NCBI GenBank assembly: GCA_031254575.1
Contig: JAIRUE010000112.1
Span: 3,811 to 67,810 of the forward strand
Length of the DNA stretch: 64,000 nt
From: Oscillospiraceae bacterium
GTDB taxonomy: Bacteria; Bacillota; Clostridia; Oscillospirales; UBA929
Direction: 5' to 3'
Shown: piece after piece, positions 2,594 to 48,463 of the stretch
Layout: every line of letters starts with the position of its first letter
How positions within the stretch are numbered: position 1 is the first letter of the stretch
Notes under the pieces: model-generated
What the model saw: the letters and a program-made list of their open reading frames with translations, nothing else
The model's database searches: none
What the model was told of the DNA's origin: nothing
Made by a program: the position numbers and the translations under genes

Positions 2594-2707
2594 TGCCGTA
2601 ATTCTCCCCTTTCCGTTTTTATCCCATCCTATTCCGGATGAGTGGTTTATGTGTATCCTCCGGCGTTTTGGTAAAGAATAAACGCAAAAACAGGCGGGGG
2701 TTGTCCG

Positions 2708-4616: not shown

Positions 4617-7292
4617 CTACATCCGCCCGATAATCAACCGCACCTTATATCCCCACGGGTCGGTGTAGACGTCGAAATAATTGCAGTATACGCGCGCGTC
4701 GGAGAGCGGCATCATCTCGCCGATAGATGGGACGTACACCCCCGTTAAGGCCGAGGCAACCGGCACCTCGTCGCCCTTAAGCGTCACAGACCTGTTGCCG
4801 TTGAAATCCTCCCTCGTCAGTCCGTCGTACCGGATACAGTCCACAAGGCCTGTGACGACGCCCCCGTCGCCGCTGAGGGCGTTGCCCGACGCCAGTCCTA
4901 TGACAGCCCCCTTGCGCGGGGGGGTGAACGAATTGCAAAGGAACCATTCCGAGACGCCGCCTCCGGTGGTGGAAACGCCCGCTACGGTGTAGGAGTACTG
5001 TTCGCCGGACATTGAGGAGCCGCCCTCTTCTTTGCTGTCGGCATAGCCGTAGGCGTACGCGTCGCCGGTCACGTCGTTGAGAACAATAGCGGTCACATAT
5101 CCCGCGGATCCTGTTTCGGCGTGGATGACCTTAGCGGCGGGGACGCGGCCCATAGGGATGTCGGAGAGCGACAGGCGCACGGCGCGCCCCGCGCTGCCCA
5201 CCTGCTCGTAAACGGTACACCACGGCGCGAGCGGGACGGAACCAAGCCTTTTCGCGGTGACGTTGAGATCGCCCCTGCCGCCGCTCTGCGGCTCGAACGG
5301 CGTAAGATAGATCCTGTCGCCGGAGGAGCCTTGAAAATGCCCCACCCAGCCCGTCATCAGCGCGTACGGGCCTGCCGGCTCGCCGCTCAGCGTCAGCGGA
5401 GTCCAGCCGACGAGGACGCCGCTGTTATCCGCCGTGACAAGGCCGATAGTGGTTCCGGCAACCTCACCGGGACCACGCACGTCGGCGATCCGCCACCCGG
5501 ATGCTCCCGTGTCGGGGATCAGCAGGAAAACACAACGCTGTCCGCTGAACTGGGGCATCTTTGCCGTGGCTTCGGGCAGCAGTTCAAATGTCCTGCCCAT
5601 CATGGTGAGAGTGGAGGGCGCCGCGGGGCTGGGCTTGGGATCGGTGTAGTATCCTGAAACGCGCATGCTGTACGCCTCCACGATGCCCGCGCTTTCATAA
5701 AACATCAGGACGTCCCATCTCTCGAGCATATCCCGCTCGGCCGGAAAACCGTTTTTGTAGAGGACCGCGTCCTCGGCGGTCTTGCCGAACGCGCCGGTGA
5801 GCGGGTCGACGCCTTTCACGGGCTGCTTTTCCAGCACCGCGAGTTTGTAGCTGCCGGAACCGCGCGTCAGGGAACGGTAAATATACTGGAGGGTTTTGTT
5901 TTCGTCGTAGGCCAGCAGGAATATTTCGCCGGTGCGGATGTTCTCCCAGACGTCGTCAAACTCGTCCTCCGTCTCCCCCCAAACCGGGAGCTTTTTGGAG
6001 ATGGGGATGAATCCGCCCTTATCGTCAAATAATCCGTTGGACTGTATTCCGGTGACGGTAAGGGAGGCGTATGTGTAGGAGCGGGAGGGGGTAAAGCTGA
6101 CGGCGTACCGTTCGCGGTCGACCAAAAGCCGTCCCCAGCGGCCGCACAGCGCGGCGTCGATCGTCCCCCTGACGGGATAGCGCGCCCCGTCCGGGCCGGC
6201 GGCATAGGTCTGCCCGCCCGACGTCAGCATCCTCAGCACGGTGTTGTACGGCGTGCCGATTTGATTCTCTTTACTGTCGCGCACGATATAGAGCAGCGCG
6301 TTCCCCCGGTAGGCCAGCGTGACGGGTTCCTCCTCCCAGAAGTCGCCCGCCTTGTCATAAGCGCTGCTGGAGCCGCCCCAGTCCCACACCTTAAGCGACG
6401 AGGCCACCGGTATAAACGCGCCGCCCTTGAGCGAGAGGCCGTCCGCCTGGTTCTTCATGACGGTGACCTGCCTGTAGGATACCGTTTGGTCAAGCGCGAC
6501 CGAGAGGATATTATTCCCCTTATCGGCCATCATGGACGCCAGCCTGCCCTTATAGGACTCGTCCAGCGTGCCGCGGTAGGTATAGGTTTTGTCACCGTGG
6601 AAAATCTCGGTGACCCCGCCGTCCGTTTCAAAGACGAGGACGGTTTCAATAGGCTCCGCCTTAAAGGCTTTTTCCATAAAAGTCACGCCGTCGCCGTCCC
6701 TGATTTCGGCAAAGAGGAAGTTATAAATAAGCCTGGCGGCCTCCCCGCGCGTCATCTTATGGTCCGCCCCGAAAGACATGCCCCTGCTGGTGCCCAGCGC
6801 CTCCGCCTTGGCGATATAGCTGTACGGCCAGTTGAGGCCGACATGCTCGTCCTTGTAGCCCAGCAGTTTCATCAGCACGGTGATGAGCTGCCCGTACAGC
6901 ATGGGGTCGTTGGGATGGAACAGCCCGTCGGTGCTGCCGACCATGACGGGGGGCTGATCGTTTATACGCGAGGTGGCGGCGTTGATCCACCTGTGCGCCC
7001 AGTGACTGGCGAGCACGTCGGGGAAGCGCACCGTGCCGCCGTAGACAGAAACGTCGAACGTACCGGAGAGCCGCACGCCGATGACTGCCAGATCGGCGCG
7101 GGTAAACAGCCGGTCCGGGGAATAGTTGGAGCCGCCGGTGCCGCTGACGATCTTGAGCCGGTACAAAAGCTCCGCCGCCTGCCGCGTCGCGGCGTCGGGG
7201 ATGTCGGTAAACGGCCCGGCCGCGCCGGCGGGGGGTATGCCGAAGATGGGGAGCAGGCAGAGTATAAGCAAAAAGCTGACAAACCGTTTCAT
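4617..7292 (-). CDS. SLH (S-layer homology) domain cell-wall protein, 891 aa, remainder unassigned
   Basis: A signal peptide (MKRFVSFLLILCLLPIFGIPPAGAA) is followed by three SLH-like modules (FTDIPD..., FPDVLASHWAHRWINAA, MTRGEAARLIYNFL). The ATG lies 9 nt after the permease stop, and the RBS TAGGAGG contains that stop codon. Confidence 0.8.
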   Translation of the reverse strand: MKRFVSFLLILCLLPIFGIPPAGAAGPFTDIPDAATRQAAELLYRLKIVSGTGGSNYSPDRLFTRADLAVIGVRLSGTFDVSVYGGTVRFPDVLASHWAHRWINAATSRINDQPPVMVGSTDGLFHPNDPMLYGQLITVLMKLLGYKDEHVGLNWPYSYIAKAEALGTSRGMSFGADHKMTRGEAARLIYNFLFAEIRDGDGVTFMEKAFKAEPIETVLVFETDGGVTEIFHGDKTYTYRGTLDESYKGRLASMMADKGNNILSVALDQTVSYRQVTVMKNQADGLSLKGGAFIPVASSLKVWDWGGSSSAYDKAGDFWEEEPVTLAYRGNALLYIVRDSKENQIGTPYNTVLRMLTSGGQTYAAGPDGARYPVRGTIDAALCGRWGRLLVDRERYAVSFTPSRSYTYASLTVTGIQSNGLFDDKGGFIPISKKLPVWGETEDEFDDVWENIRTGEIFLLAYDENKTLQYIYRSLTRGSGSYKLAVLEKQPVKGVDPLTGAFGKTAEDAVLYKNGFPAERDMLERWDVLMFYESAGIVEAYSMRVSGYYTDPKPSPAAPSTLTMMGRTFELLPEATAKMPQFSGQRCVFLLIPDTGASGWRIADVRGPGEVAGTTIGLVTADNSGVLVGWTPLTLSGEPAGPYALMTGWVGHFQGSSGDRIYLTPFEPQSGGRGDLNVTAKRLGSVPLAPWCTVYEQVGSAGRAVRLSLSDIPMGRVPAAKVIHAETGSAGYVTAIVLNDVTGDAYAYGYADSKEEGGSSMSGEQYSYTVAGVSTTGGGVSEWFLCNSFTPPRKGAVIGLASGNALSGDGGVVTGLVDCIRYDGLTREDFNGNRSVTLKGDEVPVASALTGVYVPSIGEMMPLSDARVYCNYFDVYTDPWGYKVRLIIGRM

Positions 7293-8582: not shown

Positions 8583-9415
8583 AAGGCGCTTCCTCCTGCT
8601 TCCGGGGAACGGGCGTTTTGTCCGGACCCGCTCTCCCCGTGGGTAGAAATCTGGGAAGGAGGCCCGTTCCCGCCCGCGAAAGCGGCCCGCGGGCCCGCGT
8701 CGGCATCGATAAGCCCGGTGTCCTCCACGATCCGCCCGTCCTTGATCCGGACATTCCGCCTGGCCATCTGCGCGACCGCCGGGTCGTGGGTGATCAGGAC
8801 GATGGTGGTGCCGGCGGTGTTCAGGGCGTCGAGTATCTGTATGACATGCTCGCCGGTGCGGGAGTCGAGATTGCCGGTCGGCTCGTCGGCCAGAATGATG
8901 TTGGGATTGGTCGCCAGCGCCCGCGCGATGGCGACGCGCTGCTGCTGTCCGCCCGACATCTGCCCCGGCTTGTGGTCCATCCGCTCATAGAGCCCCACCC
9001 TGTCAAGCGCGTCCATCGCCATCTGGCGGCGCTTCGAGCCGTGGACGCCCTGATATATCAGCGGCAGCTCCACATTCTCCAGCGCCGTCAGCCCGCTCAG
9101 GAGGTTGAAGCCCTGAAAGATAAACCCGATCTGCTCGTTGCGGACCTGGGCCAGCTCATAGTCGTACAAATTACAGACGTTCTCGCCGTTGAGGTAGTAA
9201 TCCCCGTAGGTGGGGATGTCGAGGCAGCCCAGAATGTTCATCAGCGTCGATTTGCCGGAGCCGGACGCGCCGACAATGGCGATATACTCGCCCTGCGACA
9301 CCGACAGCGACACGCCGTCAAGGGCGCGCACCTCGCTCTCGTGGCCTTCGTTGTAAATCTTATAGATGTTGTACAGCTCGATCAGAGCTCCCGTCAAGTT
9401 CCCCATCCCGCTCAC
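8579..9415 (-). CDS. ABC transporter ATP-binding protein (MacB/LolD-type) with low-complexity C-terminal tail
   Basis: Walker A is GASGSGKST, the signature is SGGQQQR and Walker B is ILADEPT. The GTG start overlaps the adaptor stop (GTGA). The last ~50 aa are Gly/Ser/Pro/Ala-rich. Confidence 0.9.
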   Translation of the reverse strand: MSGMGNLTGALIELYNIYKIYNEGHESEVRALDGVSLSVSQGEYIAIVGASGSGKSTLMNILGCLDIPTYGDYYLNGENVCNLYDYELAQVRNEQIGFIFQGFNLLSGLTALENVELPLIYQGVHGSKRRQMAMDALDRVGLYERMDHKPGQMSGGQQQRVAIARALATNPNIILADEPTGNLDSRTGEHVIQILDALNTAGTTIVLITHDPAVAQMARRNVRIKDGRIVEDTGLIDADAGPRAAFAGGNGPPSQISTHGESGSGQNARSPEAGGSAL

Positions 9416-11781
9416 CGGCCTGGCGCCGGCATAACGACAACACCGCCGCCGCCATCAATGACTACGCCGCCCCCGCCAACCACGCCGCCCCCGCCGCTGG
9501 GCATGGGCCTGCTGATGACGGGCCCGTCGCCGCCGGACTTGTCATCCCCGGCGGGTTCATCCCCTCCGTCGGGAGAGGGCTCGTCCCCGCTGTCCCCGCC
9601 GTCGTCAGCAGGGTCTTCGCCGCCGTCAGAAAACCCATCGTCAGGGAAGCCGCCGTCCACAAAACCGTCGTCCGCGGGCCATTCGCCGCCCGGCAGCACC
9701 GGCTTGCCAAAGTCGCCGCCGGGAGCGCCGGGGTCAAACGGGTCGAGCGGGATCCAGTTGCCCCATTCGTCGTAGTACCCGTCGCCAAGGGGTTCCTCCT
9801 CGTCGGGCGAAGGCGATACCTTATCCCTGTCCTCCCAGCCCCTGTTATAGCCGTCGTCAAAAGCGTCCCTGGCCTCCCCCTCGTAATCGACCTCAAAATC
9901 ATAGGTGGGGGCGGGCGAAGGCAGGATGTCGGTCTTCTGGGTGAAAACCTCCCAGTTGTCCCATTCGGGCAGCAGTCCCTCTGTGACCTCGATATACCGG
10001 GCGCTCTGGATGCCGCATTTGACCATGACGGCGTAAAATCCGGGCGGCACGATCCCCTCGGGCAGCTCGACGGCGCTTTCGGGCGCTTTGCCGTCCCTCG
10101 TTTTGAGGAACACATAGTCGTCCCTTCCGTAGTTTTTAATGGCCTGGATGGGCACGACGATCGGGTTTTCGGAGATGTCAAGGGTGATGCTGAAGTTGGC
10201 GCCGGTCCCCTCCATCAATTGCCCCTTGCTGTTATCGACCGCGATAATAACGGGGAAGTACGCCCCGCCGCCGGTCTGGTTGGCCGTCCGGTCGATGCTG
10301 GTGAGAGTCCCGGGGATGGTGGTCATCTCGCCGTTGACGTAGGCGTCCACATCGACGGACATGCCCACACTGACCTTTTGAATGTCGCTCTGGTAGATCT
10401 CGCCCCGCAGCGTCAGGGTATCCATCAGCGCGACGACGATCTGTACGGGGTTGTTCGGGGAAATCGTCATCCCCGGCCAAAGGTCCACATAGCTCATGAC
10501 GGCGCCGGAAATGGGGGCGCGGAAGGTCAGGTCGTCCATTTTCTGGTATTCTTGATCGATCGAATCCAGCAGCGACTGGATCTGTTCGTTCTTACCCTCG
10601 ATACTGGCCTCATATCCGGCGATGGTTTCCTCGAGGATGCGGATCTGCCCCGTGTAACCCTCTTCGATGCTGGTGTCCGGGATGAAGTCCAGCTCCAGCA
10701 GCAGGTCGCCTTTATTGTATGTATAACGGTCGCGCAGGTTGATATAATTGAGCCGCCCATACGATTTCATACTCAGTTCTATCTCGTTGATGCACTTCAG
10801 AAGGCCGGACTCCGCCGGGAGGATAGGCTCGCCGCCCGCCGAGCGCATCGACGCGGTGGCCAGCATGCCCGCCTTGAGCGCGCCGGGATTGTCCATCGTG
10901 ATCTCGACTTCAAAGGACACCGAGCCGTCCTCGCCGATATTGCGTATCTTTTCAACGGCCGTCACCTTGCCGTCCACCGTCGCCATAGCGCCGGGGATCG
11001 ACACGTCGCAGGGCTGGCCGATATAGATGTCGTTCTCGTACCCGTAGGAAAAATAAAGGGTCAGCGTCATCTGCGAATCATCGACCAGAAAGCCGAGATA
11101 GCTGTTTTCGGTGATCAGGCTGCCCAGCGTCAGCGGCAGAGCGTCCTTGGCGCGCTCGACGCGCCCCGAAAAAGGCGCGTAAAGCCGCGCCGCCGCCTGC
11201 ATGGCGATCTGCTCGGCGTTGGCTTTTTGCAGATCCTCATAGACTTTGCCGATCTGTTCCCGCGTCTCCGCGATCCTTGTTTCAAAGCCCGCGATGTCCG
11301 TCCCGGCGGCGGCGATCTGTTTATTCAGGTCGGCCACGGCCTTGTCGATGGCGGAGGAGTCAAGGACGACCAGAATATCGCCCTCCTGCACCGGCATCCC
11401 GTACATAACGTTGCTTTGCAGCACCGCGCCCTCCCCCATGACCGTGACCGTCTCGCTGTTCTCGGGCTGGAGGTAGCCGTAGCCGCTGATCGTGTTCTTG
11501 ATCTCGGCGGGTTTGTTGTCGGTCCCGTCCCAGAGCTCGATCCGGCCGGTGAGGTAATACTCCGGCGCCGGGGCAAAGAAGACATAGTAGGTGAGCAGCG
11601 CCAGTCCGCCCGCCGTCGCCAGGCCGATGGCGATAAACAGTATCCTCTTCAGGATGCGTTTCCGCCGTCCGGGGCGGTTTCGCCTGACAGGCGGCGGAGT
11701 GGCGGACTGCCTCTCCATCTCCCGGGGAACTTCCGCCGTCTTCGGCGCTTCCGCGACCGCGGTATAGGTCTTATCGTCCAT
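9412..11781 (-). CDS. HlyD/MacA-family periplasmic-adaptor-like protein, double length with acidic Gly/Asp/Pro C-terminal tail
   Basis: The track ORF is 9412..11826. I prefer ATG 11781, which has AAGGAG 6 nt upstream; a TATAAT box sits only 5 nt from the 11826 ATG. It has one TM segment (ILFIAIGLATAGGLALLTYYVFF). The lipoyl plus coiled-coil hairpin signature occurs twice (GDILVVLDSS...APFSGRV and GDLLLELDF...APISGAV). Confidence 0.8.
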   Translation of the reverse strand: MDDKTYTAVAEAPKTAEVPREMERQSATPPPVRRNRPGRRKRILKRILFIAIGLATAGGLALLTYYVFFAPAPEYYLTGRIELWDGTDNKPAEIKNTISGYGYLQPENSETVTVMGEGAVLQSNVMYGMPVQEGDILVVLDSSAIDKAVADLNKQIAAAGTDIAGFETRIAETREQIGKVYEDLQKANAEQIAMQAAARLYAPFSGRVERAKDALPLTLGSLITENSYLGFLVDDSQMTLTLYFSYGYENDIYIGQPCDVSIPGAMATVDGKVTAVEKIRNIGEDGSVSFEVEITMDNPGALKAGMLATASMRSAGGEPILPAESGLLKCINEIELSMKSYGRLNYINLRDRYTYNKGDLLLELDFIPDTSIEEGYTGQIRILEETIAGYEASIEGKNEQIQSLLDSIDQEYQKMDDLTFRAPISGAVMSYVDLWPGMTISPNNPVQIVVALMDTLTLRGEIYQSDIQKVSVGMSVDVDAYVNGEMTTIPGTLTSIDRTANQTGGGAYFPVIIAVDNSKGQLMEGTGANFSITLDISENPIVVPIQAIKNYGRDDYVFLKTRDGKAPESAVELPEGIVPPGFYAVMVKCGIQSARYIEVTEGLLPEWDNWEVFTQKTDILPSPAPTYDFEVDYEGEARDAFDDGYNRGWEDRDKVSPSPDEEEPLGDGYYDEWGNWIPLDPFDPGAPGGDFGKPVLPGGEWPADDGFVDGGFPDDGFSDGGEDPADDGGDSGDEPSPDGGDEPAGDDKSGGDGPVISRPMPSGGGGVVGGGGVVIDGGGGVVVMPAPGR

Positions 11782-11831
11782 GCGCGTCTCCTTTTCTTTG
11801 GGAAAATTGGCATTGTTGTCCTGCATAACCC

Positions 11832-12093: not shown

Positions 12094-15000
12094 CTATCCG
12101 AACAGTGTCGTCTGCGCGGTTTCCGGCAGCCCGCCGAACGCCCCGGCGGCGCGCAGGGTCTCGATATGCGCCTTGGTTACCGCGCCGCAGCGCGACGCCA
12201 GATTATCCTCTGCGAGAAACGGGCCTTTTGCCCGCTGTCTGGCGATATTTTTCACCGCCTCCCTGCCCAGCCCCGCCAAAGCCATCAGCGGTACGGCAAC
12301 GAGCCCCGGCCCCGCCGGCGTAAAGCGCATGCCCGGCGAGGTGTGGACGTCCGGCGGCTTGAAGGTGATGCCGCGCCGCAGCATTTCATACGCGGCTTCC
12401 AGAACGACCGCCTTGTCCTGCTCCGTCTTTGAGGCGTCCTTGTCCTGTTCCGTCCGCCTGACGGCGGACTTAATGGCGTCTGCGCCCCCGCGGCATACGT
12501 CGTAGCTGAAATCGTCAATTTTCAGCGTGAAATAGACGGCGTAGAACGCCTCGGGCCTGTGCGCCTTGTACCACGCGATGCGGGCGCTCATCATCGCGTA
12601 GGCGGCGGCGTGCGCTTTGGGGAACAGATACTTGATCGCCCTGCACGAGCCGATATACCAGTCCGGCACGCCGGCGGAGCGCATGGCGGCCTCCCATTCG
12701 GCCTGTAAACCCTTGCCCCTGCGGACGCTCTCGCTGATAGAAAGGCTCTGCTTGGCGGAAATTCCCCTGGAAATGAGGTACAGAGTAATGTCGTCACGGG
12801 CGCAGATGACCTCGCGCAGCGTGGCCTTTCCGTCATCGATCAGCTTTTCGGCGTTGCCGCGCCAGACGTCGGTGCCGTGCGACAGCCCGGCGATCCGCAC
12901 CAGCTCGTCAAAGGTGGAGGGCTTTGTCTTTTGCAGCATCCCCCGCACAAAACGGGTGCCGTATTCGGGGATGCCGACGGTGCCCACGGGACCGATCAGG
13001 TCGTCGTTTTCAAAGCCCAGCGCCGAGGTGGAGGAAAAGAGGCTCATAGTGACGGGGTCGTCCAGCGGGTGGCTCAGGGAGTCCTCTTTGGTCAGTTCTT
13101 CCATGCGGCGGATGAAGGTCGGGCAGTCGTGGCCGAGGATGTCGAGCTTGAGCAGGTTTTCCTCGATGGCGTGGTAGTCGAAATGGGTGCAGACCGTGCC
13201 GCCGCGCTTATTGGCGGCAAAGTGGACGGGGCAGAAATCATAGATCTCAAGATCCTGAGGGACGATGATCATGCCGCCGGGGTGCTGCCCGGTGGTCGTT
13301 TTGACGCCCTCGCAGCCTTTCGCCAGACGCCTCAATTCCGCGTCGGATACGTCCAGCCCGGCCGCCTCAAGGTATTTAAGCGTATACCCCAGCGCGTTCT
13401 TCCCGCCGATGGTGGTAATCGTGCCGGCCCGGAAAACCTTGTCCGCGCCGAACAGCTTGGTGAGGTGCGCCCCGGCGTGTTCGTGGTAGTCGCTGGAGAA
13501 ATTGAGGTCGATGTCGGGTTTTTTGTCGGCGTCGAAGCCCAGAAAGGTCGCGAACGGAATGTCAAAACCGTCTTTTTCAAGGTTCGCCCCGCAGACGGGG
13601 CAATTTTTGTCCGGCAGGTCGATGCCGCAGCCTGCGTACGCCGCGTGCCCGTCCGCGCCGGATTGCGGCGGGGACGAATCATCTTCCCGGACGGTTCCCG
13701 GAAACTCGCTGTATCGGCATTCCGGGCAGCGGTAGTGCGGCGGCAGGGCGTTGACCTCGGTAATGCCCGCGAAATACGCCGCGACGCTGGAGCCGACCGA
13801 GCCGCGCGAACCGACAAGGTATCCTTTTTTCATACTGCGCCGCACCAGCTTTTGAGAGATGGTGTAGATGATGTCGTATCCCTTGCCGATGATGGAACTC
13901 AATTCCTTCTCCAGCCGTTCCCCGATCAGCGGCGGCAGCTCGTCGCCGTACAGGGCGCGGGCGCGCTCGTACGCAAGCCCGCGCAGTTCCTCCGCGCTTC
14001 CCTTGAGGACGGGGAAATACTCTCCCCCGCGCACGGGGGATATGTCCCCGACCGAATCCGCGACGGCCCGGGGCGCGGTTACGACCACTTCATAGGCGGT
14101 CTCCGCGCCCAGATAGGAAAATTCCTCAAGCATTTCGTCCGTCGTTTTGAAATACAGCGGCAGAGGGTAGGGATCAAGCATGTTTTTATTCGCGAGCAGG
14201 ATGTTCCGGTGAATCTCGTCCTCCGGGTCGAGAAAATGCACGTCGCCGGTGGCGCAGACGGGCTTATTCAGTTCCCTGCCCAGCCGTACGACGGAGCGGT
14301 TCCACTCGCGGAGATGTTCGTCGTCCCTGGCGTGCCCGTTGCGGACCAAAAACCGGTTATTGCAGAGGGGCTGTATTTCCAGAAAATCATAAAAAGACGC
14401 GGTTTGTAAAGCGTCCTCCCACGGCAGTCCTTCCCGGACGGCGGAAAACACCTCGCCGCGCTCGCAGGCCGCGCCGATAACGATCCCCTCGCGCCACTGT
14501 TCCAGCAGTTCCCGCGTGAGGCAGGGGCGGCGCTTAAAATGCTCCAGATGGGCAAGGGATACGAGCCGGTAAAGGTTGCGCAGCCCGTCCTGGGTGCGGG
14601 CAATGAGGATGATATGATACATCCTGTCCAATTGGGTTTTTGCCCGCTCGCCGCCGTCCTCCGGCCCGGACGGAACTTTGGGCGCGCCGCCGCCCGGCAC
14701 GGTAAGGTAACCCTCGCAGCCGTACAGCACTTTGACGCCGTACTTCTTCCCCGCGGCCATCGCCTCCGGGAAGGCGTGGCAGACGCCGTGGTCGGTCACG
14801 GCGACGGCGGGATGCCTCCACCTCGCCGCCAGGGCAATCGCTTCCGCGACGGGCGTAACGGCGTCTTTCTCGCTCATCTGCGTATGTAAATGCAATTCCA
14901 CGCGCTTTTCCGGCGCCGTGTCCTCCCGCGGGGGCGCTTCCGCGCTTTCAACACAGGCCGCCGCGAGGGCCCATTCCTCTTTTTCCATCACCGTATAGGA

Positions 15001-15594
15001 CTCCATCTCCCCGAAAACCGTGACATGCCCCCTGCCCTCACAAATCTCCCCGATACGCTTCTCCAGCCCCGGCGGGACTTTGCCCTTTTCAAAAACGCAC
15101 CGCACACAGACCGAGCCGGTGCCGTCGGTGATATAAAATTCGGTCATTACGGCGTCGCGCCAGCGGTTTTGCAGGCGCATCCGGCGTTCCCGCGTCTCCC
15201 CGACGGCGAAGACGCGCCCGCGCGCGCAGGCTTTGGCCTTTTCTCTGGGCAGCGTGTCGATGGACATGACCTCCATGCGGGGCGGTTTTCCGAACAGAAC
15301 CCGCGGGCCGCGGCGCCCGTCCGGTTCGGATCGCCGTGGCGCCGCGGCTTTCCGCCCGCGCTCCGCAACCGCGTCCGGCCGCGCGCCGGTGAACAGAACC
15401 CTCACATCCGCCAGTCCCATCGCCTCGCGGATGCGCCGCCCGGCGTCCTCCGCCCAGCCCGGTACGGGCTCGGTCCCGGCCAGTTCCACGGTCAGGCGGT
15501 TCTCCTCCCGCTTGACGCGCAGGGCTTTAACCGCCGGGTCGGAAGAACCGGCGGGCAGGCAGGACGGAAAGACCTCTGAAAAGGGTTTCACCAA
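12094..15594 (-). CDS. polC: PolC-type DNA polymerase III alpha subunit, apparently lacking the exonuclease insertion
   Basis: 1166 aa in the canonical Firmicute position after ispG/rseP. It has PHP motifs (VELHLHTQMS, AVTDHG), the PolC Zn-finger region (HYRCPECRYSEF...CPVCGANLEKDGFDIPFATFLGF), GSRGSVGSS and KAHAAAYAMM, and ends in TTLFG as B. subtilis PolC does. The start is TTG 15594 or GTG 15591, after GGGGGAG. Confidence 0.9.
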   Translation of the reverse strand: MVKPFSEVFPSCLPAGSSDPAVKALRVKREENRLTVELAGTEPVPGWAEDAGRRIREAMGLADVRVLFTGARPDAVAERGRKAAAPRRSEPDGRRGPRVLFGKPPRMEVMSIDTLPREKAKACARGRVFAVGETRERRMRLQNRWRDAVMTEFYITDGTGSVCVRCVFEKGKVPPGLEKRIGEICEGRGHVTVFGEMESYTVMEKEEWALAAACVESAEAPPREDTAPEKRVELHLHTQMSEKDAVTPVAEAIALAARWRHPAVAVTDHGVCHAFPEAMAAGKKYGVKVLYGCEGYLTVPGGGAPKVPSGPEDGGERAKTQLDRMYHIILIARTQDGLRNLYRLVSLAHLEHFKRRPCLTRELLEQWREGIVIGAACERGEVFSAVREGLPWEDALQTASFYDFLEIQPLCNNRFLVRNGHARDDEHLREWNRSVVRLGRELNKPVCATGDVHFLDPEDEIHRNILLANKNMLDPYPLPLYFKTTDEMLEEFSYLGAETAYEVVVTAPRAVADSVGDISPVRGGEYFPVLKGSAEELRGLAYERARALYGDELPPLIGERLEKELSSIIGKGYDIIYTISQKLVRRSMKKGYLVGSRGSVGSSVAAYFAGITEVNALPPHYRCPECRYSEFPGTVREDDSSPPQSGADGHAAYAGCGIDLPDKNCPVCGANLEKDGFDIPFATFLGFDADKKPDIDLNFSSDYHEHAGAHLTKLFGADKVFRAGTITTIGGKNALGYTLKYLEAAGLDVSDAELRRLAKGCEGVKTTTGQHPGGMIIVPQDLEIYDFCPVHFAANKRGGTVCTHFDYHAIEENLLKLDILGHDCPTFIRRMEELTKEDSLSHPLDDPVTMSLFSSTSALGFENDDLIGPVGTVGIPEYGTRFVRGMLQKTKPSTFDELVRIAGLSHGTDVWRGNAEKLIDDGKATLREVICARDDITLYLISRGISAKQSLSISESVRRGKGLQAEWEAAMRSAGVPDWYIGSCRAIKYLFPKAHAAAYAMMSARIAWYKAHRPEAFYAVYFTLKIDDFSYDVCRGGADAIKSAVRRTEQDKDASKTEQDKAVVLEAAYEMLRRGITFKPPDVHTSPGMRFTPAGPGLVAVPLMALAGLGREAVKNIARQRAKGPFLAEDNLASRCGAVTKAHIETLRAAGAFGGLPETAQTTLFG

Positions 15595-15622: not shown

Positions 15623-16744
15623 TTAATCCCGCGGTTGTGGTAATTCCCCGGCCATCCCGCGCGCCTCCGTTACCAGCGCCTCCAGAATCTCGTCCTCACG
15701 GATGATCCTCACGGCCTCGCCCTTGCGGAACAGAAGAGCATCTCCCTCGTGAGCGGGCGAATGGCCCTCGTCCCGCAATCCGCTAAGCCGGGCATTGGGT
15801 CTCGCGCCCCGCCAGCCCGCCACGCCTATGTCCGCGTCCCGCGCCTCGCCCGGGCCGTTGACCGCGCAGCCCATCACGGCGACTTTGAGCGGCGCGCGAA
15901 TGCCGGAAAGCCGCTCCTCCGCCGCGCGGGCCAGCGCCGCCACATCGATGCCGCGCCGGGCGCAGGTGGGGCAGGAAATGATTTCAACGCCGCCCGTCCG
16001 CAGCCCGACGGCTTTCAGCAGCGCGATCCCGGCGCGCGCCTCTTCGACCGGCGGCGCGGTCAGCGAAACGCGGATCGTATCGCCGATCCCGTCAAGCAGC
16101 AGCGCGCCGATCCCGGCGGCGGACTTGATCAGCCCGTGATAGCCTGTCCCCGCTTCGGTCACGCCAAGGTGCAAGGGCAAATCGGTGCGCTCCGCCGCCA
16201 TGCGGTTGACGGCGACGGTATCGGCGACGCCGGACGCTTTGAAAGAGAGGCATATCCCGGTAAATCCCATGTCCTCCAGGATGGCCGCCTGTTCCAGCCC
16301 CGACCGCAGCATCGCCTCGCGCAGGCCGTGTTTTTCAATCAGCGCCCGCTTGACCGAGCCGCCGTTGACGCCGATGCGTATCGGTATCTTTCGCTCGCCG
16401 CAGGCGCGCGCGACCTCGCGCACCCGTTCCTTTGAGCCGATATTGCCGGGGTTGACGCGCACCTTGGCCGCGCCGTTCTCGGCGGCGCGGACAGCGAGTT
16501 TATAGTCAAAATGGATGTCAGCCACGACGGGGAGGGGACTGCCCCTTACAATATCCCGCAGCGCCTCCGCCGCGTCCGCGTCCGGCACCGCGACCCGTAC
16601 GAGGTCGCACCCGGCGGCGTGCAGGTCCCGTATCTGCGACAGTGTCGCCTCCGCGTCGCGCGTGTCGGTATCGCACATCGACTGCACCGTTACCGGCGCG
16701 CCCCCGCCGATCAGAACGCCGCCGGCGCTGATTTGGCGCGTCAC
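15623..16744 (-). CDS. ispG: 4-hydroxy-3-methylbut-2-enyl diphosphate synthase (IspG/GcpE)
   Basis: The track ORF (to 17155) runs through rseP. The real start is the GTG overlapping the rseP stop (GTGA). The product reads MTRQISAGGVLIGGGAPVTVQSMCDTDT...VADIHFDYKLA...RVNPGNIG...IISCPTCARR. Confidence 0.9.
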   Translation of the reverse strand: MTRQISAGGVLIGGGAPVTVQSMCDTDTRDAEATLSQIRDLHAAGCDLVRVAVPDADAAEALRDIVRGSPLPVVADIHFDYKLAVRAAENGAAKVRVNPGNIGSKERVREVARACGERKIPIRIGVNGGSVKRALIEKHGLREAMLRSGLEQAAILEDMGFTGICLSFKASGVADTVAVNRMAAERTDLPLHLGVTEAGTGYHGLIKSAAGIGALLLDGIGDTIRVSLTAPPVEEARAGIALLKAVGLRTGGVEIISCPTCARRGIDVAALARAAEERLSGIRAPLKVAVMGCAVNGPGEARDADIGVAGWRGARPNARLSGLRDEGHSPAHEGDALLFRKGEAVRIIREDEILEALVTEARGMAGELPQPRD

Positions 16745-17850
16745 AGCCCCACCAGCCGCCGTATGTCGTTGAAAAAAATGAATATCATCAGCCCGAACAG
16801 CAGCAGCATCGTAACGCCGTGGATATAGCCTTCCACTTTCGCGCTGAGGGGCTTTTTGCGCACCAGCACCAAAAAGGCCGAAATGAACAGGAAGAAAATC
16901 CGCCCGCCGTCCAGCGCCGGGATCGGCAGCAGGTTGACCACCGCGAGGTTGACGGCCACCAGCCCGGCCAATTGCAGCAGCTGGCGCATCTGGTCGGACA
17001 GGGCGGTTTCTTCCTCGCTGATGATCTCGTTGACGGCGCCGCCGAGGCCCACAAAGCCCACCAGGTCGCCCGCTCCGGCCGCGCCGGAGATGAGGTCGCC
17101 CAGGCTGATCCAAACCAGCCGCACAAAATCCACGGTGGACGCGCCGGCGTGCCACAGCGTTTTGGAAGCGGTCAGTTCCTCGGCGGCGCCGACGGTGAAG
17201 CCGAATTTCTGCCCGCCGTCCAGCTGCCGGGTCACATCGGAGACGGTGACCCTTTCGCCGCCGCGCTCCATCACGAACGTATAGGGCGTATCGGCGTCAC
17301 GCCCGAGAAAGAGATAGAAGTCGCTGAGGTTGTAAATACGGTGGCCGTTAATGGAATAAAAGCGGTCTCCCGTCTGTATTTGGCCGGCATAGGGGAAATC
17401 CGGCTCCAGGGAGGTGATGTCGGGCATGGCGACGTAATTGACGGAGCTAAAGAGGATGAGAAAGAAGAGAAAGCCCAGCAAAAAATTCATCGCGGCCCCG
17501 CTGACCAGCATGAAAACCTTCTGCCAGATTCCCTTGTTGCGGAAATGCGCAGGGTCGTCGGAGGCCTCGTCCTCGCCCAAATCGCAGAAGCCGCCGACGG
17601 GAAAGGCGCGAAGGGAAAATTTTGTTCCCATCGGCTCCCCGTTTTCGTCTTTTTTCTGCCGCCTGTAGAGGACGGGCCCCATGCCGATGGCAAACTCGCG
17701 CACCCGCATGCCGCAGAGCCGGGCCGCGAGAAAATGCCCCAGCTCGTGCGCCGTGATCAGCACGCCGAGGATGAGGATCAGGATGAGCGCGGAGATAACC
17801 GGCAAAATATCACCACCTATATAAATTGACTGTCTGTAAAACATCTTCAA
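16741..17850 (-). CDS. rseP: RIP site-2 metalloprotease RseP/RasP (M50)
   Basis: HELGHFLAARLCGMRVREFAIGMGP is present, with a PDZ-like middle region and C-terminal NLLPIPALDGG. An alternative start, TTG 17805, lies directly after the dxr stop and follows AGGTGGTGA. Confidence 0.9.
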   Translation of the reverse strand: MKMFYRQSIYIGGDILPVISALILILILGVLITAHELGHFLAARLCGMRVREFAIGMGPVLYRRQKKDENGEPMGTKFSLRAFPVGGFCDLGEDEASDDPAHFRNKGIWQKVFMLVSGAAMNFLLGFLFFLILFSSVNYVAMPDITSLEPDFPYAGQIQTGDRFYSINGHRIYNLSDFYLFLGRDADTPYTFVMERGGERVTVSDVTRQLDGGQKFGFTVGAAEELTASKTLWHAGASTVDFVRLVWISLGDLISGAAGAGDLVGFVGLGGAVNEIISEEETALSDQMRQLLQLAGLVAVNLAVVNLLPIPALDGGRIFFLFISAFLVLVRKKPLSAKVEGYIHGVTMLLLFGLMIFIFFNDIRRLVGL

Positions 17851-18970
17851 CGGAGGGGTTTTCGATATACGGCGCGTCGTCCAGCGCCCGCTCCACCCGT
17901 TCCGCGATCTCCGTAAATCCGCATTCCCCGCGCAGGAACGCCGTTACCGCCGCCTCGCCCGCGCCGCACAGCGCCGCGCCCATGTTGCCGCCGCGCCGCG
18001 CCGCGCGTTCCGCCAGCGCAAGGCAAGGGAAGCGGCCGCGGTCAGGTTCCTCAAAGGTCAGGGTACTTCGCGCGGTAAAACCGAGCTTCGCCGCCGGGCC
18101 GGGCAGGCGCGCCGGATAGGTCAGCGCGTACTGTATCGGCAGGCGCATGTCGGGCGGGGCGAGCTGCGCGATGACCGCGCCGTCAGTATATTCCACCATC
18201 GAATGAATAATGCTCTCCGGGTGCAGTACCACGTCTGTCTGTTCCGGGCGCAGGGAAAACAGGTGGATCGCCTCGATAATTTCCAGCCCCTTGTTCAGCA
18301 GAGTTGCCGAATCGACGGTGACCTTGGGGCCCATACGCCATGTCGGGTGTTTCAGCGCCATCTCCGGCGTGACGGAACGGAGCTGTTCTTTGGAAAAGTC
18401 CCTGAACGGCCCGCCGGACGCGGTAAGAATAACGCGGGAAACCTCCTCCCGCCGCCCGCCTTGCAGGCACTGAAAAATTGCGCTGTGTTCGCTGTCCACC
18501 GGTATAATGCCCCGTTTGGCGGCATTTGTTACCAGTCCGCCGCCGCAGACAAGGCTTTCCTTGTTGGCCAGCAGCAGCCGTTTGCCCGAGTCCAGCGCCG
18601 CGAGAGTGGGGCGCAGGCCGCTTATCCCCGACAGGGCGTTGAGAACGGTATCCGCGCCGGGAAAAACCGCCGCCTCAAGAATGCTCTCCGCGCCGCAGAG
18701 GACTTTGACCGGCGTATCGGCCAGCGAACTTTTGAGGGCGCGCCCAGCTTCCGCGTCCGCGACGCAGACGAGCTCCGGCAAAAACCGCCGCGCCTGCTCC
18801 TCCAGCAGCGGGGTGTTGCGTCCCGCCGCGAGAACGGCGATCCCCGGCTCAAAAGGCAGGAAGTGCGTTCCCTCTCTCCCACGGTCCGGCCCGGACGTCC
18901 GCAGCGCCTCGCAGACGGCGAGCGCCTGACGGCCGATCGAACCGGTGGAACCGAGCAAGGAGAGCGTCAT
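17810..18970 (-). CDS. dxr: 1-deoxy-D-xylulose 5-phosphate reductoisomerase
   Basis: The N-terminus reads LSLLGSTGSIGRQAL. Further matches are LLANKESLV, PVDSEHSAIFQC and ILTASGGPFR. Confidence 0.95.
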   Translation of the reverse strand: MTLSLLGSTGSIGRQALAVCEALRTSGPDRGREGTHFLPFEPGIAVLAAGRNTPLLEEQARRFLPELVCVADAEAGRALKSSLADTPVKVLCGAESILEAAVFPGADTVLNALSGISGLRPTLAALDSGKRLLLANKESLVCGGGLVTNAAKRGIIPVDSEHSAIFQCLQGGRREEVSRVILTASGGPFRDFSKEQLRSVTPEMALKHPTWRMGPKVTVDSATLLNKGLEIIEAIHLFSLRPEQTDVVLHPESIIHSMVEYTDGAVIAQLAPPDMRLPIQYALTYPARLPGPAAKLGFTARSTLTFEEPDRGRFPCLALAERAARRGGNMGAALCGAGEAAVTAFLRGECGFTEIAERVERALDDAPYIENPSVEDVLQTVNLYRW

Positions 18971-19800
18971 GAAACAGCCTCTATCGCGGGCAGCAAAATA
19001 ATCAGAACCTCCAGTACCGGCGCGGCGAACAGCAAACTGTCAAAGCGGTCGAGAACGCCGCCGTGCCCCGGCAGCAGCGAGCCAAAATCCTTGATCTGAA
19101 ACTCGCGCTTGACGAGGCTCATCGAAAGATCGCCCAGCTGCCCCGCAAGGCTTCCCGCAAGACCGTACAGCAGCAGCAGCGGGTAGCTGACAGCACGGCC
19201 GAAAACTGTCTGCATCAGAACGCCGTAAAGGACCATGCCGGCCAGGACGCCAATCAGGCCGCCAACGGAGCCTTCAACCGTTTTTTTGGGGCTGACGGGA
19301 GTGAGCTTATGCCTGCCCCAGGCCGACCCTGTGAAGTAGGCGCAGGTATCCCCCAAAAGCGCGGCTATAAACGGCAGCATGATAACGTATTTTCCGCCGG
19401 CAAACGCCATGACGCGGATGAGCGAGGAAAAAAACGAGGGAATACAGACAGCCGTCGTAAAGATGACGCCGATATGCTTGAATGTGACCCGTTCATGGTC
19501 GGCGACGGCTTCCCCGAAAAGCGCCATCAGGAAGAGCAGCGGGCCCGCGAGCCGGAGCGAGCCGGCATAATCCCCGAGGCAGGGTCTTATGTAAAACCAG
19601 ACGGGCACGCAGGCGGCAAAGACAACGGCGCAGGCGGACAGCCTTTTTTTAGGGGCAAAGCCCGTGTTGCCCAGCAGTTCCCAGACGGACAGAGCGGAAA
19701 TGAGGGAGATAACCGCCGCAAGCGTCCAGTCCGGCGCGAAAAACAGGACAAGCGGCAGGACGGGCAAAAGGATGATTCCCACAATGATCCGCACACGCAT
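18967..19800 (-). CDS. cdsA: Phosphatidate cytidylyltransferase (CdsA)
   Basis: The track ORF extends into uppS. ATG 19800 gives MRVRIIVGIILLPVLPLVLFF... and ends with the CTP-transferase signature SLVKREFQIKDFGSLLPGHGGVLDRFDS. Confidence 0.9.
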   Translation of the reverse strand: MRVRIIVGIILLPVLPLVLFFAPDWTLAAVISLISALSVWELLGNTGFAPKKRLSACAVVFAACVPVWFYIRPCLGDYAGSLRLAGPLLFLMALFGEAVADHERVTFKHIGVIFTTAVCIPSFFSSLIRVMAFAGGKYVIMLPFIAALLGDTCAYFTGSAWGRHKLTPVSPKKTVEGSVGGLIGVLAGMVLYGVLMQTVFGRAVSYPLLLLYGLAGSLAGQLGDLSMSLVKREFQIKDFGSLLPGHGGVLDRFDSLLFAAPVLEVLIILLPAIEAVS

Positions 19801-19852
19801 AAAAACGACCGCCTCCTGACAAGCCGCGGACAAAACACGGGGGCCGTATCCC

Positions 19853-20560
19853 TTACAGTCCCCCGTATCTGCGGTTTCGATCGGAATAATTCTCAAGAAT
19901 GGAGACCAGTTCTTTTTTTGAAAAGTCTGGCCACAGCGTATCGGTGAAAAACAGCTCGGCATAGGCGAGCTGCCACGGCATGAAGTTGGACAGGCGCCAC
20001 TCGCCCCCGGTCCGGATACAGAGATCGGGGTCGGGAAGGAACGCCGTGTCAAGGTGGCGCGAAAAGGTGTCCTCGGTCACGTCTCCGGTCTCCGCGCCCG
20101 AGGAAAGGTGCATCAGCTCGCGGGCCGCGCGCACGATCTCGTCGCGTCCGCCGTAGTTGACGCAGATGCCGCACAGACAGCCGTCATACCGCGCCGAGAC
20201 CTTCTCCGCCCGCTCCATCTGCTCCCGTATATCCCCGGGGAGCGGCTCAAGGTCCCCCAGGAATTTCAGCCGCACGCGGTCGCGCTCCATTTTCTCCAGC
20301 GATTCGGAGATATAACGGCGCAGAAGGTCATAGATCTCCTCTACCTCCTCCCCCGGTCGCAGCCGCCTGTTTTCGGTGGAAAGGGCGTAGACGGTAAGGT
20401 TCCGGACGCCGATGTCGCGGCAAAACGTGGCGATGGTGCGGAACGTCTCCGCTCCCGCCGCGTGCCCCGCCTTGCGCGGCAGGCCGCGCCGCCGCGCCCA
20501 GCGCCCGTTTCCGTCCATGATGACGGCGATGTGGCCCGGCAGTGTCGCAGGCAGCTTCAA
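19853..20560 (-). CDS. uppS: Isoprenyl transferase / undecaprenyl diphosphate synthase
   Basis: HIAVIMDGNGRWA is present, along with TVYALSTEN, LCIRTGGEWRLSNFMPWQLAYAELFF. Confidence 0.95.
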   Translation of the reverse strand: MKLPATLPGHIAVIMDGNGRWARRRGLPRKAGHAAGAETFRTIATFCRDIGVRNLTVYALSTENRRLRPGEEVEEIYDLLRRYISESLEKMERDRVRLKFLGDLEPLPGDIREQMERAEKVSARYDGCLCGICVNYGGRDEIVRAARELMHLSSGAETGDVTEDTFSRHLDTAFLPDPDLCIRTGGEWRLSNFMPWQLAYAELFFTDTLWPDFSKKELVSILENYSDRNRRYGGL

Positions 20561-21108
20561 ACTTCCATCAATTCCTTTTCCTTTTTTGCGGTAAGCGCGT
20601 CGATGTCCCTGACCGCATTGTCGGTCAGTTCCTGAACGTCGCGCTCGGTGTCGCGCAGGTCGTCCTCGGTGATCTCGCTCTTTTTCTGCTGCTTCTTATA
20701 GGCCTCGATGGCGTCGCGCCGGATGTTGCGCACCGCCACCTTGGCCTCCTCGCCGTATTTGTGTACAAGCCGGGTCAGTTCCTTGCGGCGTTCTTCCGTG
20801 AGCTGCGGGAACGCCAGGCGGATGACCTTGCCGTCGTTGGTCGGGTTGATGCCCAGGTCGGACGCCTGTATGGCCTTTTCAACGGCCTTGAGCACCGACG
20901 CGTCCCACGGCTGGATGACCAGAACGCGCGGCTCGGGCGTGGAGACCGACGCGATCTGCGCCACCGGCGTGGTGACGCCGTAGTAGTCGACCGACACGCG
21001 CTCGAGCACGGCGGCGCTGGCGCGCCCCGCGCGGATCGTGGCGTAACTGTGGCCCAGCATCTCCAGCGTTTTTGCGATCCTGTCCTCTATTTCGGGGTAA
21101 CTGCCCAT
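20557..21108 (-). CDS. frr: Ribosome recycling factor
   Basis: 183 aa, with FPQLTEERRKELTRLVHKYGEEAKVAVRNIRRDA. Confidence 0.95.
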   Translation of the reverse strand: MGSYPEIEDRIAKTLEMLGHSYATIRAGRASAAVLERVSVDYYGVTTPVAQIASVSTPEPRVLVIQPWDASVLKAVEKAIQASDLGINPTNDGKVIRLAFPQLTEERRKELTRLVHKYGEEAKVAVRNIRRDAIEAYKKQQKKSEITEDDLRDTERDVQELTDNAVRDIDALTAKKEKELMEV

Positions 21109-21123
21109 ACGGATCGTCCTTTC

Positions 21124-21837
21124 TTACCGTACCATGGTACCTATTTTTTCGCCCATAACGGCGCGGTATATATTTTCCGGGTCGCTCAGCGCGAACAGCA
21201 GGACGGGAATGCGGTTGTCCCGGATAAAGCTGGCCGCCGCCGCGTCCATCGCCTTGAGGTCGTCGCGGAGAAAATCGCCGGGGGACAGTTCGTCGTATCT
21301 GCGCGCGCCGGGGTTGGTTTTGGGGTCGTCGTCGTATACGCCGTCCACATTCTTGGCGAGAAGGACGATATTCGCCCCGATCTCCGCGCCGCGCAGCAGG
21401 GCCGCCGTGTCTGTGGTAAAATAGGGATTGCCCGTCCCGCAGCCGAAGACGACCACCCGGCCCTTGTCAAGATGGGATATGGCGCGCAGGCGGGCGAACG
21501 GTTCGGCGAAAGGCCGCATTTCAACGGCGGTCTGCACACGCACCTCAATGCCGTTTCTCTCCAGCACGTCTGCGATGGCGAGGCAGTTGATGGCGGTGGC
21601 CAGCATCCCCATATGATCGGCCCGCGAACGGTCCATCCTGCCGCCGCCGTCCTTGGCCCCGCGCCAGATATTCCCCCCGCCGATCACCAGGCCGATCTGA
21701 ACGCCCTCGTCAAGGCAGCGCCTGATGACGCCGGAGATGCCCTCGATGACGCCGAAGGACAGGACTTCGCCGCCGCCGCCCGCGATGGCCTCCCCGCTGA
21801 TCTTGACGAGCACCCGTTTATATACAGGCCCGGCCAT
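21124..21837 (-). CDS. pyrH: UMP kinase
   Basis: [15 protein letters not shown] is present, along with [18 protein letters not shown] and [22 protein letters not shown]. Confidence 0.95.
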   Translation of the reverse strand: [237 protein letters not shown]

Positions 21838-23937: not shown

Positions 23938-23955
23938 CGTATGGAGGGAATCCGA

Positions 23956-24864
23956 ATGGCGGCGTCCAAACGCACCGACCTCGCGCTGGAGGCGCGGGAG
24001 CTGATCCAGGAGAGCAGCGAGGCGACGACCGAGATCGAAGGCGTCGTCGCGCGGGAATATAAGCGGCACGGCTGTCCCGTCACGCGGGTGGAAATCATCA
24101 GCGAAGCGGGCGAGCAGGCGATGGGCAAACCCGTCGGAAACTATGTAACCGTGGAAATGCAGGGGCTTATGCGCCATGAAGAGGACGCGTTCAGGCGTTC
24201 CGTGCAGGCCATCGCAGACGAGCTTTCCCCGATGCTGCCGGTCGGCGGGATGTACGGCGTCCTGCTGGCGGGACTGGGCAACCGCGACATCACGCCCGAC
24301 GCCATCGGGCCGCTGGCTATGCAGAACAGCGTCGTAACGCGGCATCTGGTGGACAAAATGCCGGAGAATTTCGGGCACATGCGCCCCGTCGCCGCCATCT
24401 CGCCCGGCGTATTGGGCACGACCGGCATGGAGAGCGCCGAGCTCATCCTCGGCGCGATACAGTACGCGCGGCCCGGCGCGGTCGTCATCATCGACGCGCT
24501 GACCTCGCGCCGCCTGTCGCGGCTGTGTTCGACGGTGCAGCTCGCGGACAGCGGGATCGTCCCCGGCTCCGGCGTAGGCAACGCGCGGGCGGCGCTGAAC
24601 AAAAAGACGCTGGGCGTGCCGGTCATCTCGGTCGGCGTGCCGACGGTCGTCGACGCGGTGACGCTGATGGCCGACCTCACCGAGCAGGCAGGCCAGCCCG
24701 AACCGGATTGGGACGAGATCTCCAAATTCTCAGGCGGGCTGATGGTCACGCCCAAGGAAATCGACACGCAGGTGGAAACGCTCGCCCGCGTCATCGGCTA
24801 CGCGGTGAGTATCGCGCTGCACCCGGAGATGGACGTGGACGACGTGCAGGGGTTTTTAAGCTGA
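23956..24864 (+). CDS. gpr: GPR endopeptidase (germination/spore protease, A25)
   Basis: MAASKRTDLALEARELI..., then GNYVTVEM, GLGNRDITPDAIGP, VIIDALTSR and SGIVPGSGVGN. The track ORF starts 5 codons earlier, but GGAGGG precedes ATG 23956. Confidence 0.9.
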   Translation: MAASKRTDLALEARELIQESSEATTEIEGVVAREYKRHGCPVTRVEIISEAGEQAMGKPVGNYVTVEMQGLMRHEEDAFRRSVQAIADELSPMLPVGGMYGVLLAGLGNRDITPDAIGPLAMQNSVVTRHLVDKMPENFGHMRPVAAISPGVLGTTGMESAELILGAIQYARPGAVVIIDALTSRRLSRLCSTVQLADSGIVPGSGVGNARAALNKKTLGVPVISVGVPTVVDAVTLMADLTEQAGQPEPDWDEISKFSGGLMVTPKEIDTQVETLARVIGYAVSIALHPEMDVDDVQGFLS

Positions 24865-37270: not shown

Positions 37271-37366
37271 AATTGAGAATTGACAATTGGGAATTGACAA
37301 TAGACAATTGCGTTTGAGAGGCCCTTTCCGGATAATTGTCAACTGTGCATTGTCAATTGTCAATTA
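37271..37366. repeat. Inverted arrays of 7-bp tandem repeats (AATTGAC x6 / TCAATTG x5) in the rpsL-rpsG spacer
   Basis: 37271-37312 reads AATTGAG AATTGAC AATTGGG AATTGAC AATAGAC AATTGCG. 37332-37366 reads ATAATTG TCAACTG TGCATTG TCAATTG TCAATTA. A GC-rich 19-nt centre separates them. Confidence 0.85.
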
Positions 37367-37795: not shown

Positions 37796-37820
37796 GAGGT
37801 TCCTCCTTTCTTCAGGGCTT

Positions 37821-37909: not shown

Positions 37910-37929
37910 GTGAGGGACAGGCGGCTCAG

Positions 37930-38172: not shown

Positions 38173-38233
38173 AGGCGTTCAACTCCTTGTCATGCGGGGG
38201 TTTTAGCGCTTTTAAGCACAGAAACGCCCACAT

Positions 38234-48447: not shown

Positions 48448-48463
48448 AGGACCTCTCCTTTGC

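Follow-up and report, generated by a model that had tools for sequence, protein, structure and literature searches.

PolC, a target for antibiotics, is the textbook example of a replicase that carries its own DEDDh proofreader. PolCs that naturally lack this exonuclease domain (Exo) are also on record: a survey of ~2000 genomes by Timinskas, Balvociute, Timinskas and Venclovas (NAR, 2014; PMC3919608) reported Exo to be missing from 6% of PolCs, all of them from Clostridia or Negativicutes except for one extra copy in Thermotogae. In the Clostridia and Negativicutes that have an exo-less PolC, the partner polymerase is DnaE1 and not DnaE3, and the metal site of the PolC PHP domain is strongly conserved; Table S2 of the survey lists 12 complete genomes in which a protein with the arrangement N-terminal domain (NTD)–OB–PHP–Pol3–HhH is the sole PolC and stands beside a canonical DnaE1 (PMC3919608). 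The PolC of Acidaminococcus fermentans (YP_003399045.1) has 1191 residues, the PHP ligand string HHDHEHCDH and the C-terminal motif QIELF (PMC3919608). A 2026 survey from the same group defines an 'active' PHP domain by the pattern HHDHEH[C/H]DH and reports three 'active' proofreaders as the usual set in Clostridia (PolC-PHP, PolC-DnaQ and DnaE1-PHP); its supplement does not say genome by genome which PolCs are without DnaQ (PMC12926913). Here we describe a polC gene that encodes an exo-less PolC in a 64,000-nucleotide stretch of an Oscillospiraceae genome (assembly GCA_031254575.1, contig JAIRUE010000112.1, positions 3,811 to 67,810; hereafter the window), compare it with its relatives, and weigh how the replicase of this organism might be proofread.

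The open reading frame (ORF) occupies positions 12094–15594 of the minus strand and translates without interruption into 1166 amino acid residues (aa) from a TTG start at 15594; the NCBI gene model starts one codon later, at GTG 15591, and gives 1165 aa. The protein is identical to NCBI MDR0294394.1, which comes from a 74-kb contig of a metagenome-assembled genome (MAG) annotated 'Oscillospiraceae bacterium' and is already annotated as PolC. Both PolC equivalog profiles assigned it to the family, with 1207 bits against a cut-off of 873 for NCBIfam NF001688 (PRK00448) and 1086 bits against a cut-off of 1043 for TIGR01405. The PRK00448 match fell into two stretches, of which the one listed begins at aa 319 and at profile position 608. 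Pfam recognized PHP, DNA_pol3_alpha, DNA_pol3_finger and HHH_6, and the best match among solved structures was 3F2B, which aligned in a single stretch from aa 150 to 1165 that crosses the former Exo position. The order of domains is an OB fold N-terminal of PHP, the polymerase core with its Zn module, HhH, and a C-terminal clamp motif.

At the point where Exo would be inserted, the window PolC has a Gly/Pro-rich loop (aa 298–325; 14620..14703, minus strand), delimited by the alignment of the junction and by the predicted local distance difference test (pLDDT) of a structural model, in which values fell below 50 over aa 301–320. These 28 residues, TVPGGGAPKVPSGPEDGGERAKTQLDRM, lie between the PHP ligands E294 and H327 and are flanked by KVLYGCEGYL (aa 288–297) and by YHIILIA, which begins at aa 326. 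Counted from the Glu ligand to the His ligand, the loop measures 32 aa in the window PolC versus ~13 in its closest relatives (LTLPDGK-DRAH), and is thus ~19 aa longer; across 11 other exo-less loci it ranges from 12 to 33 aa and its sequence is not conserved. We aligned the window PolC with its 120 best homologues using MAFFT, and the interval corresponding to query positions 285–330 (46 residues) separated them into two groups, with 228–239 residues in 88 homologues and 24–46 in the 32 others. The extra segment of one of the longer proteins, from Papillibacter cinnamivorans (P0030), holds ExoI (FDIETTG), ExoII (HNAEFD) and ExoIII (HRAEDD), and comparison of the loops puts the missing segment at ~185–205 aa.

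Profile searches gave the same answer. The Pfam RNase_T family (PF00929) was not found in the window PolC even at E<=1. We also used the Exo segments of all 88 full-length relatives to build a hidden Markov model (HMM), which we ran with filters off against all six-frame pieces of the 64-kb window; the best match had E=1.9 and none lay in polC. As a positive control, the same model found the domain inside polC in 71/71 Exo-bearing loci at E<=1e-49, and it found no match in the 11 exo-less loci, including the 8–10 kb that flank their polC genes. The six-frame search rules out a pseudogenized remnant or a frame-shifted Exo, and neither the window nor the flanks of the 11 exo-less loci contained a split-off Exo gene adjoining polC. 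Nor did the Gly/Pro-rich loop arise from a tandem repeat or duplication that Tandem Repeats Finder could detect in the DNA at the junction. What remains is a PHP domain from which the DEDDh exonuclease was removed cleanly at the point of its insertion.

These results bear out most of what an earlier note, made from the letters of the window, had said about the protein. It had described a PolC with OB region, PHP motifs, Zn module and polymerase core at the canonical polC locus, with which Pfam, NCBIfam, the alignment and the model all agree; its motif positions and the nucleotide range of its 28-residue loop proved exact on translation of the ORF; and the DEDD insertion it reported missing is absent by PF00929, by the Exo model and by the alignment gap, as are motifs Exo I–III, which it had named as a finding that would speak against it. 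Of the difference in total length that it gave, 1166 versus ~1430 aa, not all is Exo: the missing segment accounts for ~185–205 aa and the rest lies elsewhere; the length of the N-terminal region is highly variable among the relatives (minimum 184 aa, median 273).

A concern raised by the origin of the window sequence in a MAG is that the ORF might reflect a misassembly or an artefactual deletion, or might be a paralogue in decay, with a full-length polC elsewhere serving as the real replicase. The homologues speak strongly against this possibility. Exo-less proteins with 47–80% identity to the window PolC came from independent NCBI, JGI, ENA and Logan assemblies, so that the same in-frame architecture recurs in ~30 divergent relatives, and in a neighbour-joining tree computed on 878 columns of the shared core, 30 exo-less sequences, the window included, fell into one pure and deep clade. 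The nearest relatives are MAGs from Oscillospiraceae or Clostridiales, with a best match of 67% among GTDB representatives (UBA929), and identity to the full-length PolCs of Oscillospiraceae over the shared core is 52–57%. Furthermore, in the published complete genomes that carry an exo-less PolC it is the only PolC (PMC3919608), and nine exo-less GTDB species yielded no second polC locus within the 80 top-ranking matches, although this last is a weak test because no more than 80 matches were kept.

The position of the gene is equally telling. Upstream of it, on the minus strand at 15623..21837, NCBIfam and Pfam matches identify the string pyrH-frr-uppS-cdsA-dxr-rseP-ispG, and the same order from pyrH to ispG precedes the exo-less polC in two further assemblies (GCA_009782215.1 and GCA_031556315.1); this arrangement, ending in polC, is the canonical clostridial polC locus. 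Because of the independent relatives, this synteny, the invariant catalytic and binding motifs and the high-confidence model, it is very unlikely that the assembly collapsed here or that the copy is decaying, and we regard an artefact of any such sort as the most remote of the explanations considered here. The deletion artefact that the earlier note had wished to see checked is thus not what the relatives show, nor did a second polC turn up in the sequences searched. The window polC is the genuine, functional polC orthologue of its organism and belongs to the natural exo-less class. The loss of Exo is ancient in its lineage, where it marks a deep clade whose Oscillospiraceae-like members are uncultured.

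The genes downstream of polC, by comparison, vary, and we found no conserved neighbour there among the window, GCA_009782215.1 and GCA_031556315.1. Bacilli have rimP-nusA-infB downstream of polC. In the window the gene is followed by a MacAB-type efflux system, with an unusually long, 804-aa protein resembling HlyD/RND adaptors (9412–11826, minus strand) at the head of a MacB-type ABC efflux operon directly downstream of polC. Upstream, the ispG ORF (15623–17155, minus strand, 510 aa) matches IspG only over aa 137–499 and overlaps rseP. A similar feature is seen in the rpsL ORF (37364–38233, minus strand, 289 aa), which matches S12 only over aa 186–281, and both ORFs are over-extended at their 5′ ends, with the true starts probably lying internally. 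In GCA_031556315.1 a stand-alone PHP-domain protein of 239 aa (732–1451 of the locus compared) adjoins hprK; it lies ~9 kb upstream of polC and probably acts as a common phosphoesterase.

The exo-less P0028, a 1214-aa protein from an ENA metagenome, is closer to a full-length protein than to the main clade: its core shares 84% identity with that of the full-length P0037 but only 63% with the main clade of exo-less sequences. It keeps a YFVDD motif typical of Exo-bearing PolCs. Either P0028 represents a recent, independent loss of Exo or it is the artefact of a single assembly. The neighbour-joining tree suggests at least two Exo losses within the Oscillospiraceae-like sequences, and separate exo-less PolCs are also found in Syntrophomonas, Peptococcaceae and Negativicutes; Exo loss has occurred more than once in Clostridia.

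The window PolC fits the published exo-less class on every feature compared, namely its exo-less architecture, its HHDHEHCDH ligands and its clostridial host. The kind of enzyme has been known since 2013–14. Thus, the central finding of the earlier note was correct without being new, as the exo-less PolCs of Clostridia and Negativicutes were published in 2014 (PMC3919608). The lineage of the window was not among the rows of the 2014 supplement that were available to us (PMC3919608). What this instance adds is a deep Oscillospiraceae clade without cultured members, together with evidence of repeated loss; it introduces no new principle.

Having lost its DEDDh domain, the window PolC retains a second candidate for proofreading in the PHP domain itself (~aa 233–486; 14137..14898, minus strand, delimited by motif alignment), in which we identified nine metal ligands: H235, H237, D244, H269, E294, H327, C377, D451 and H453. 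We checked these positions in 44 exo-less sequences in total. The string HHDHEHCDH was present in 33/33 from the homologue set (31 homologues besides the window protein and P0001, its duplicate at NCBI) and in 11/11 of the exo-less loci, which included the distant Syntrophomonas and Peptococcaceae. In a HMMER alignment inspected by eye, H14, H16 and D23 of Mycobacterium tuberculosis DnaE1 (7PU7 numbering) line up with ligands of the window protein. In that enzyme the PHP ligands hold a trinuclear zinc centre, and proofreading is lost on mutation to D23N or to D226N (PMC5636811). At ligand position 8 the window PolC has Asp, whereas PolCs of the Bacilli type with PDB structures (G. kaustophilus, 9QPC) carry Asn, and G. 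kaustophilus PolC has been reported to be without PHP exonuclease activity (PMC5636811).

We consider it highly probable, taking the pieces jointly, that the window carries a genuine, functional exo-less polC and that the PHP domain and/or DnaE1 most likely supplies the proofreading. The remainder of the enzyme is intact (N-terminal domain, OB fold, PHP, palm, thumb and fingers, Zn module, HhH and clamp motif), so it would be expected to polymerize normally, as do PolCs from which Exo was removed by engineering. Proofreading would most probably be performed by PolC's own PHP domain, whose intact nine-residue site would hold three metals and matches the sites of the PHP exonucleases of M. tuberculosis DnaE1 and T. 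thermophilus; a co-resident DnaE1, the usual companion of PolC in Clostridia, might contribute instead or additionally. In this background the DEDDh domain would be a redundant second proofreader, and such redundancy could explain how Exo came to be lost repeatedly; conversely, the repeated losses (P0028 versus P0037, and those in Syntrophomonas, Peptococcaceae and Negativicutes) lend support to redundancy. Because all nine ligands are intact, PHP-based proofreading in cis, DnaE1 as a partner, or both, would be the likeliest substitute for the missing domain. The earlier note had argued that the replicase would need proofreading in trans or tolerate the absence of proofreading; the structural basis of that argument was right, yet it left out what now looks the likeliest option, a PHP site with all nine ligands.

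Several observations nevertheless weigh against assigning proofreading to the PHP domain. Relatives that carry Exo have retained the site just as completely (HHDHEHCDH in 88/88 full-length homologues), so its conservation is permissive and is not a specific response to the loss of Exo. We looked for compensatory substitutions near the PHP site that would be specific to the clade and rejected them, in that only seven positions were conserved in a clade-specific manner (aa 472, 525, 682, 689, 810, 904 and 931) and 0/7 was a metal ligand. The literature that we searched yielded no experimental exonuclease activity for the PHP domain of any PolC. Finally, the junction loop, at 12–33 aa, shows no conservation and a prediction of disorder, unlike the primer-guiding loop of M. 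tuberculosis DnaE1, which at this position lines the path of the primer to the PHP site and, together with a β-hairpin, guides it through residues S100, Y105, K136 and W137 (PMC5636811). Because the loop is variable and predicted to be disordered, the DNA would have to reach the PHP site of an exo-less PolC by a different path.

Alternatively, a separately encoded DnaQ/epsilon-like DEDDh exonuclease might bind the exo-less PolC and proofread in trans; epsilon binds E. coli DnaE in this manner. Bacterial proteomes commonly contain stand-alone DnaQ homologues, with an average of more than three each (PMC12926913). However, no DEDDh/RNase_T gene was found within the 64-kb window or within 8–10 kb of polC in the 11 exo-less loci, no conserved gene follows polC in the window, GCA_009782215.1 and GCA_031556315.1, and a specific partner is not known. 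We therefore judge proofreading by a DnaQ-like subunit unlikely.

Somewhat less unlikely, though still doubtful, is a division of labour in which DnaE1, with a PHP proofreader of its own, carries out most genome replication, leaving for the exo-less PolC a restricted role in which proofreading is dispensable. This possibility was raised by Timinskas et al., who noted that the DnaE1 of Clostridia has all the properties required of a replicase that works alone, that some Clostridia have DnaE1 only, and that exo-less PolCs are confined to lineages with both PolC and DnaE1 (PMC3919608). No dnaE gene was found within the 64-kb window. Against a minor role for PolC, the protein has been kept throughout the deep clade with every motif invariant, which points to strong purifying selection.

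The replicase might, finally, operate without any exonucleolytic proofreading, the organism tolerating a higher mutation rate or relying on mismatch repair. The invariance of all nine PHP ligands in 44/44 exo-less sequences would be unexpected for a functionless site, and the clade is old and diverse, with well-conserved proteins; we accordingly regard this possibility as quite improbable. A purely structural role for the PHP site is nevertheless possible (PMC3666897). A MutS2/Smr-type protein with MutS_V, MSSS and Smr matches is encoded at 50440–52791 on the minus strand of the window; because it is MutS2 and not MutS1, it is uninformative on post-replicative mismatch repair here.

Returning to the preferred reading, in which the PHP domain and/or DnaE1 takes over from Exo, we can state a stronger version of it, although only as a tentative proposal in which we place rather less belief than doubt: the PHP domain of PolC may be the primary replicative proofreader in the Oscillospiraceae clade described here, as well as in other Clostridia with an exo-less PolC, with the variable loop forming part of the path of the primer. 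If this were true, PolC replicases would come in two flavours, DEDDh-proofread and PHP-proofread, and repeated Exo loss would mark the lineages in which an ancestral PHP exonuclease never lost its function. Natural exo-less PolCs show that Exo is dispensable in bacteria with both PolC and DnaE1, and they offer a ready system in which to address both PHP proofreading and the division of labour between PolC and DnaE1 in Clostridia. The latter question was explicitly left to experiment by Timinskas et al. (2014; PMC3919608), and we found no published answer to either in the literature searched.

An AlphaFold model of the window PolC, computed from a 50-sequence alignment, had a mean pLDDT of 89.6 and a predicted template modelling (pTM) score of 0.81, and Foldseek superposed it on 3F2B with a template modelling (TM) score of 0.95 and a root-mean-square deviation of 2.9 Å. 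From alignment with 3F2B, the model and Foldseek, the N-terminal region (aa 1–230; 14905..15594, minus strand) consists of a small N-terminal domain, an Arg/Pro-rich linker that is predicted to be disordered (aa 70–94) and an OB fold at ~aa 120–217, which appears in the model as a beta-rich block matching the OB folds of RPA, SSB and AspRS. The Zn module (13591..13728, minus strand, defined by alignment and pLDDT) comprises C623, C626, C665 and C668 and a low-confidence insert at aa 634–650; its cysteines (C622, C625, C664 and C667 in the 1165-aa numbering) are invariant in the homologue alignment.

The polymerase aspartates D694 and D696 (in PDIDLNF) and D818 (in KLDILGHD), encoded within 13141..13515 on the minus strand, are likewise invariant, and the DDD triad is retained in 11/11 exo-less loci; we take the three residues to be catalytic, on the basis of the PDxD motif that C-family polymerases conserve and of their third Asp. 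The catalytic aspartates of M. tuberculosis DnaE1 are D421, D423 and D587 (PMC5636811). At its extreme C terminus (...AQTTLFG) the protein has a predicted β-clamp-binding motif, QTTLF (12097..12120, minus strand), identified by comparison of homologue C-termini, all of which contain Q-x-x-L-F; both the QxxLF consensus and its C-terminal placement in PolC follow the 2014 supplement (PMC3919608). Disorder in the model was confined to three segments, aa 70–94, aa 301–320 in the junction loop, and aa 634–650. Correspondingly, the protein has three low-complexity inserts with pLDDT <50, at aa 70–94 (15313–15387), aa 298–325 (14620–14703) and aa 634–650 (13645–13695). These disordered inserts may be lineage-specific expansions in a genome of 62% GC.

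Elsewhere in the window, a SleB-like cortex-lytic multidomain protein (503–3058, minus strand) and the germination protease Gpr (23941–24864, plus strand) indicate that the organism forms endospores. An 891-aa protein at 4617–7292 on the minus strand has an N-terminal SLH domain and no other family match. Two islands of low GC content, at 48000–50000 (0.52) and 56000–58000 (0.54), stand out from the ~0.62 seen elsewhere; the first contains an ORF (48594–49790) with a weak Cu_amine_oxidN1 match and a GC content of 0.56 at third codon positions, and the second a BspA-type leucine-rich-repeat protein (56363–57505). The genes of these islands may encode horizontally acquired surface proteins.

How the window PolC stands among described polymerases can now be set out. 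With canonical PolC of the B. subtilis type, as represented by 9QPC and the Papillibacter protein, it shares its family and its locus, and it differs in being without the ~200-aa DEDDh exonuclease with its ExoI–III motifs. The closest engineered counterparts are the G. kaustophilus PolC lacking both N-terminal domain and Exo (3F2B/3F2C/3F2D) and the S. aureus PolC construct (PMC3656037), from which Exo was removed at the same point in PHP and replaced by a short linker. Both remain active as polymerases; the S. aureus enzyme, minus residues 415–609, polymerizes at a kpol of 330 per second (PMC3656037). Those constructs are also without the N-terminal domain, whereas the window PolC keeps its N-terminal region, and their PHP domain has Asn at ligand position 8 where the window PolC has Asp.

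M. tuberculosis DnaE1 (5LEW/7PU7) resembles the window PolC in being a C-family replicase without a DEDDh domain and with nine PHP ligands, and its loop from Glu to His is of nearly the same length (33 versus 32 residues). The two nevertheless belong to different types, with ~22% identity and with the OB fold C-terminal in DnaE1, and the DnaE1 loop, with its primer-guiding residues, is conserved in Actinobacteria, whereas the loop in the window PolC lacks conservation and has predicted disorder. The window protein matches the Acidaminococcus-type exo-less PolC, with the same NTD, OB, PHP, Pol3 and HhH, the same HHDHEHCDH ligands, a QxxLF motif and a comparable length (1166 versus 1191 aa). Within the exo-less class as described in 2014, it is set apart by its lineage, an uncultured, Oscillospiraceae-like clade represented by MAGs only, and by an unusually long, Gly/Pro-rich loop at the point from which the exonuclease was lost.

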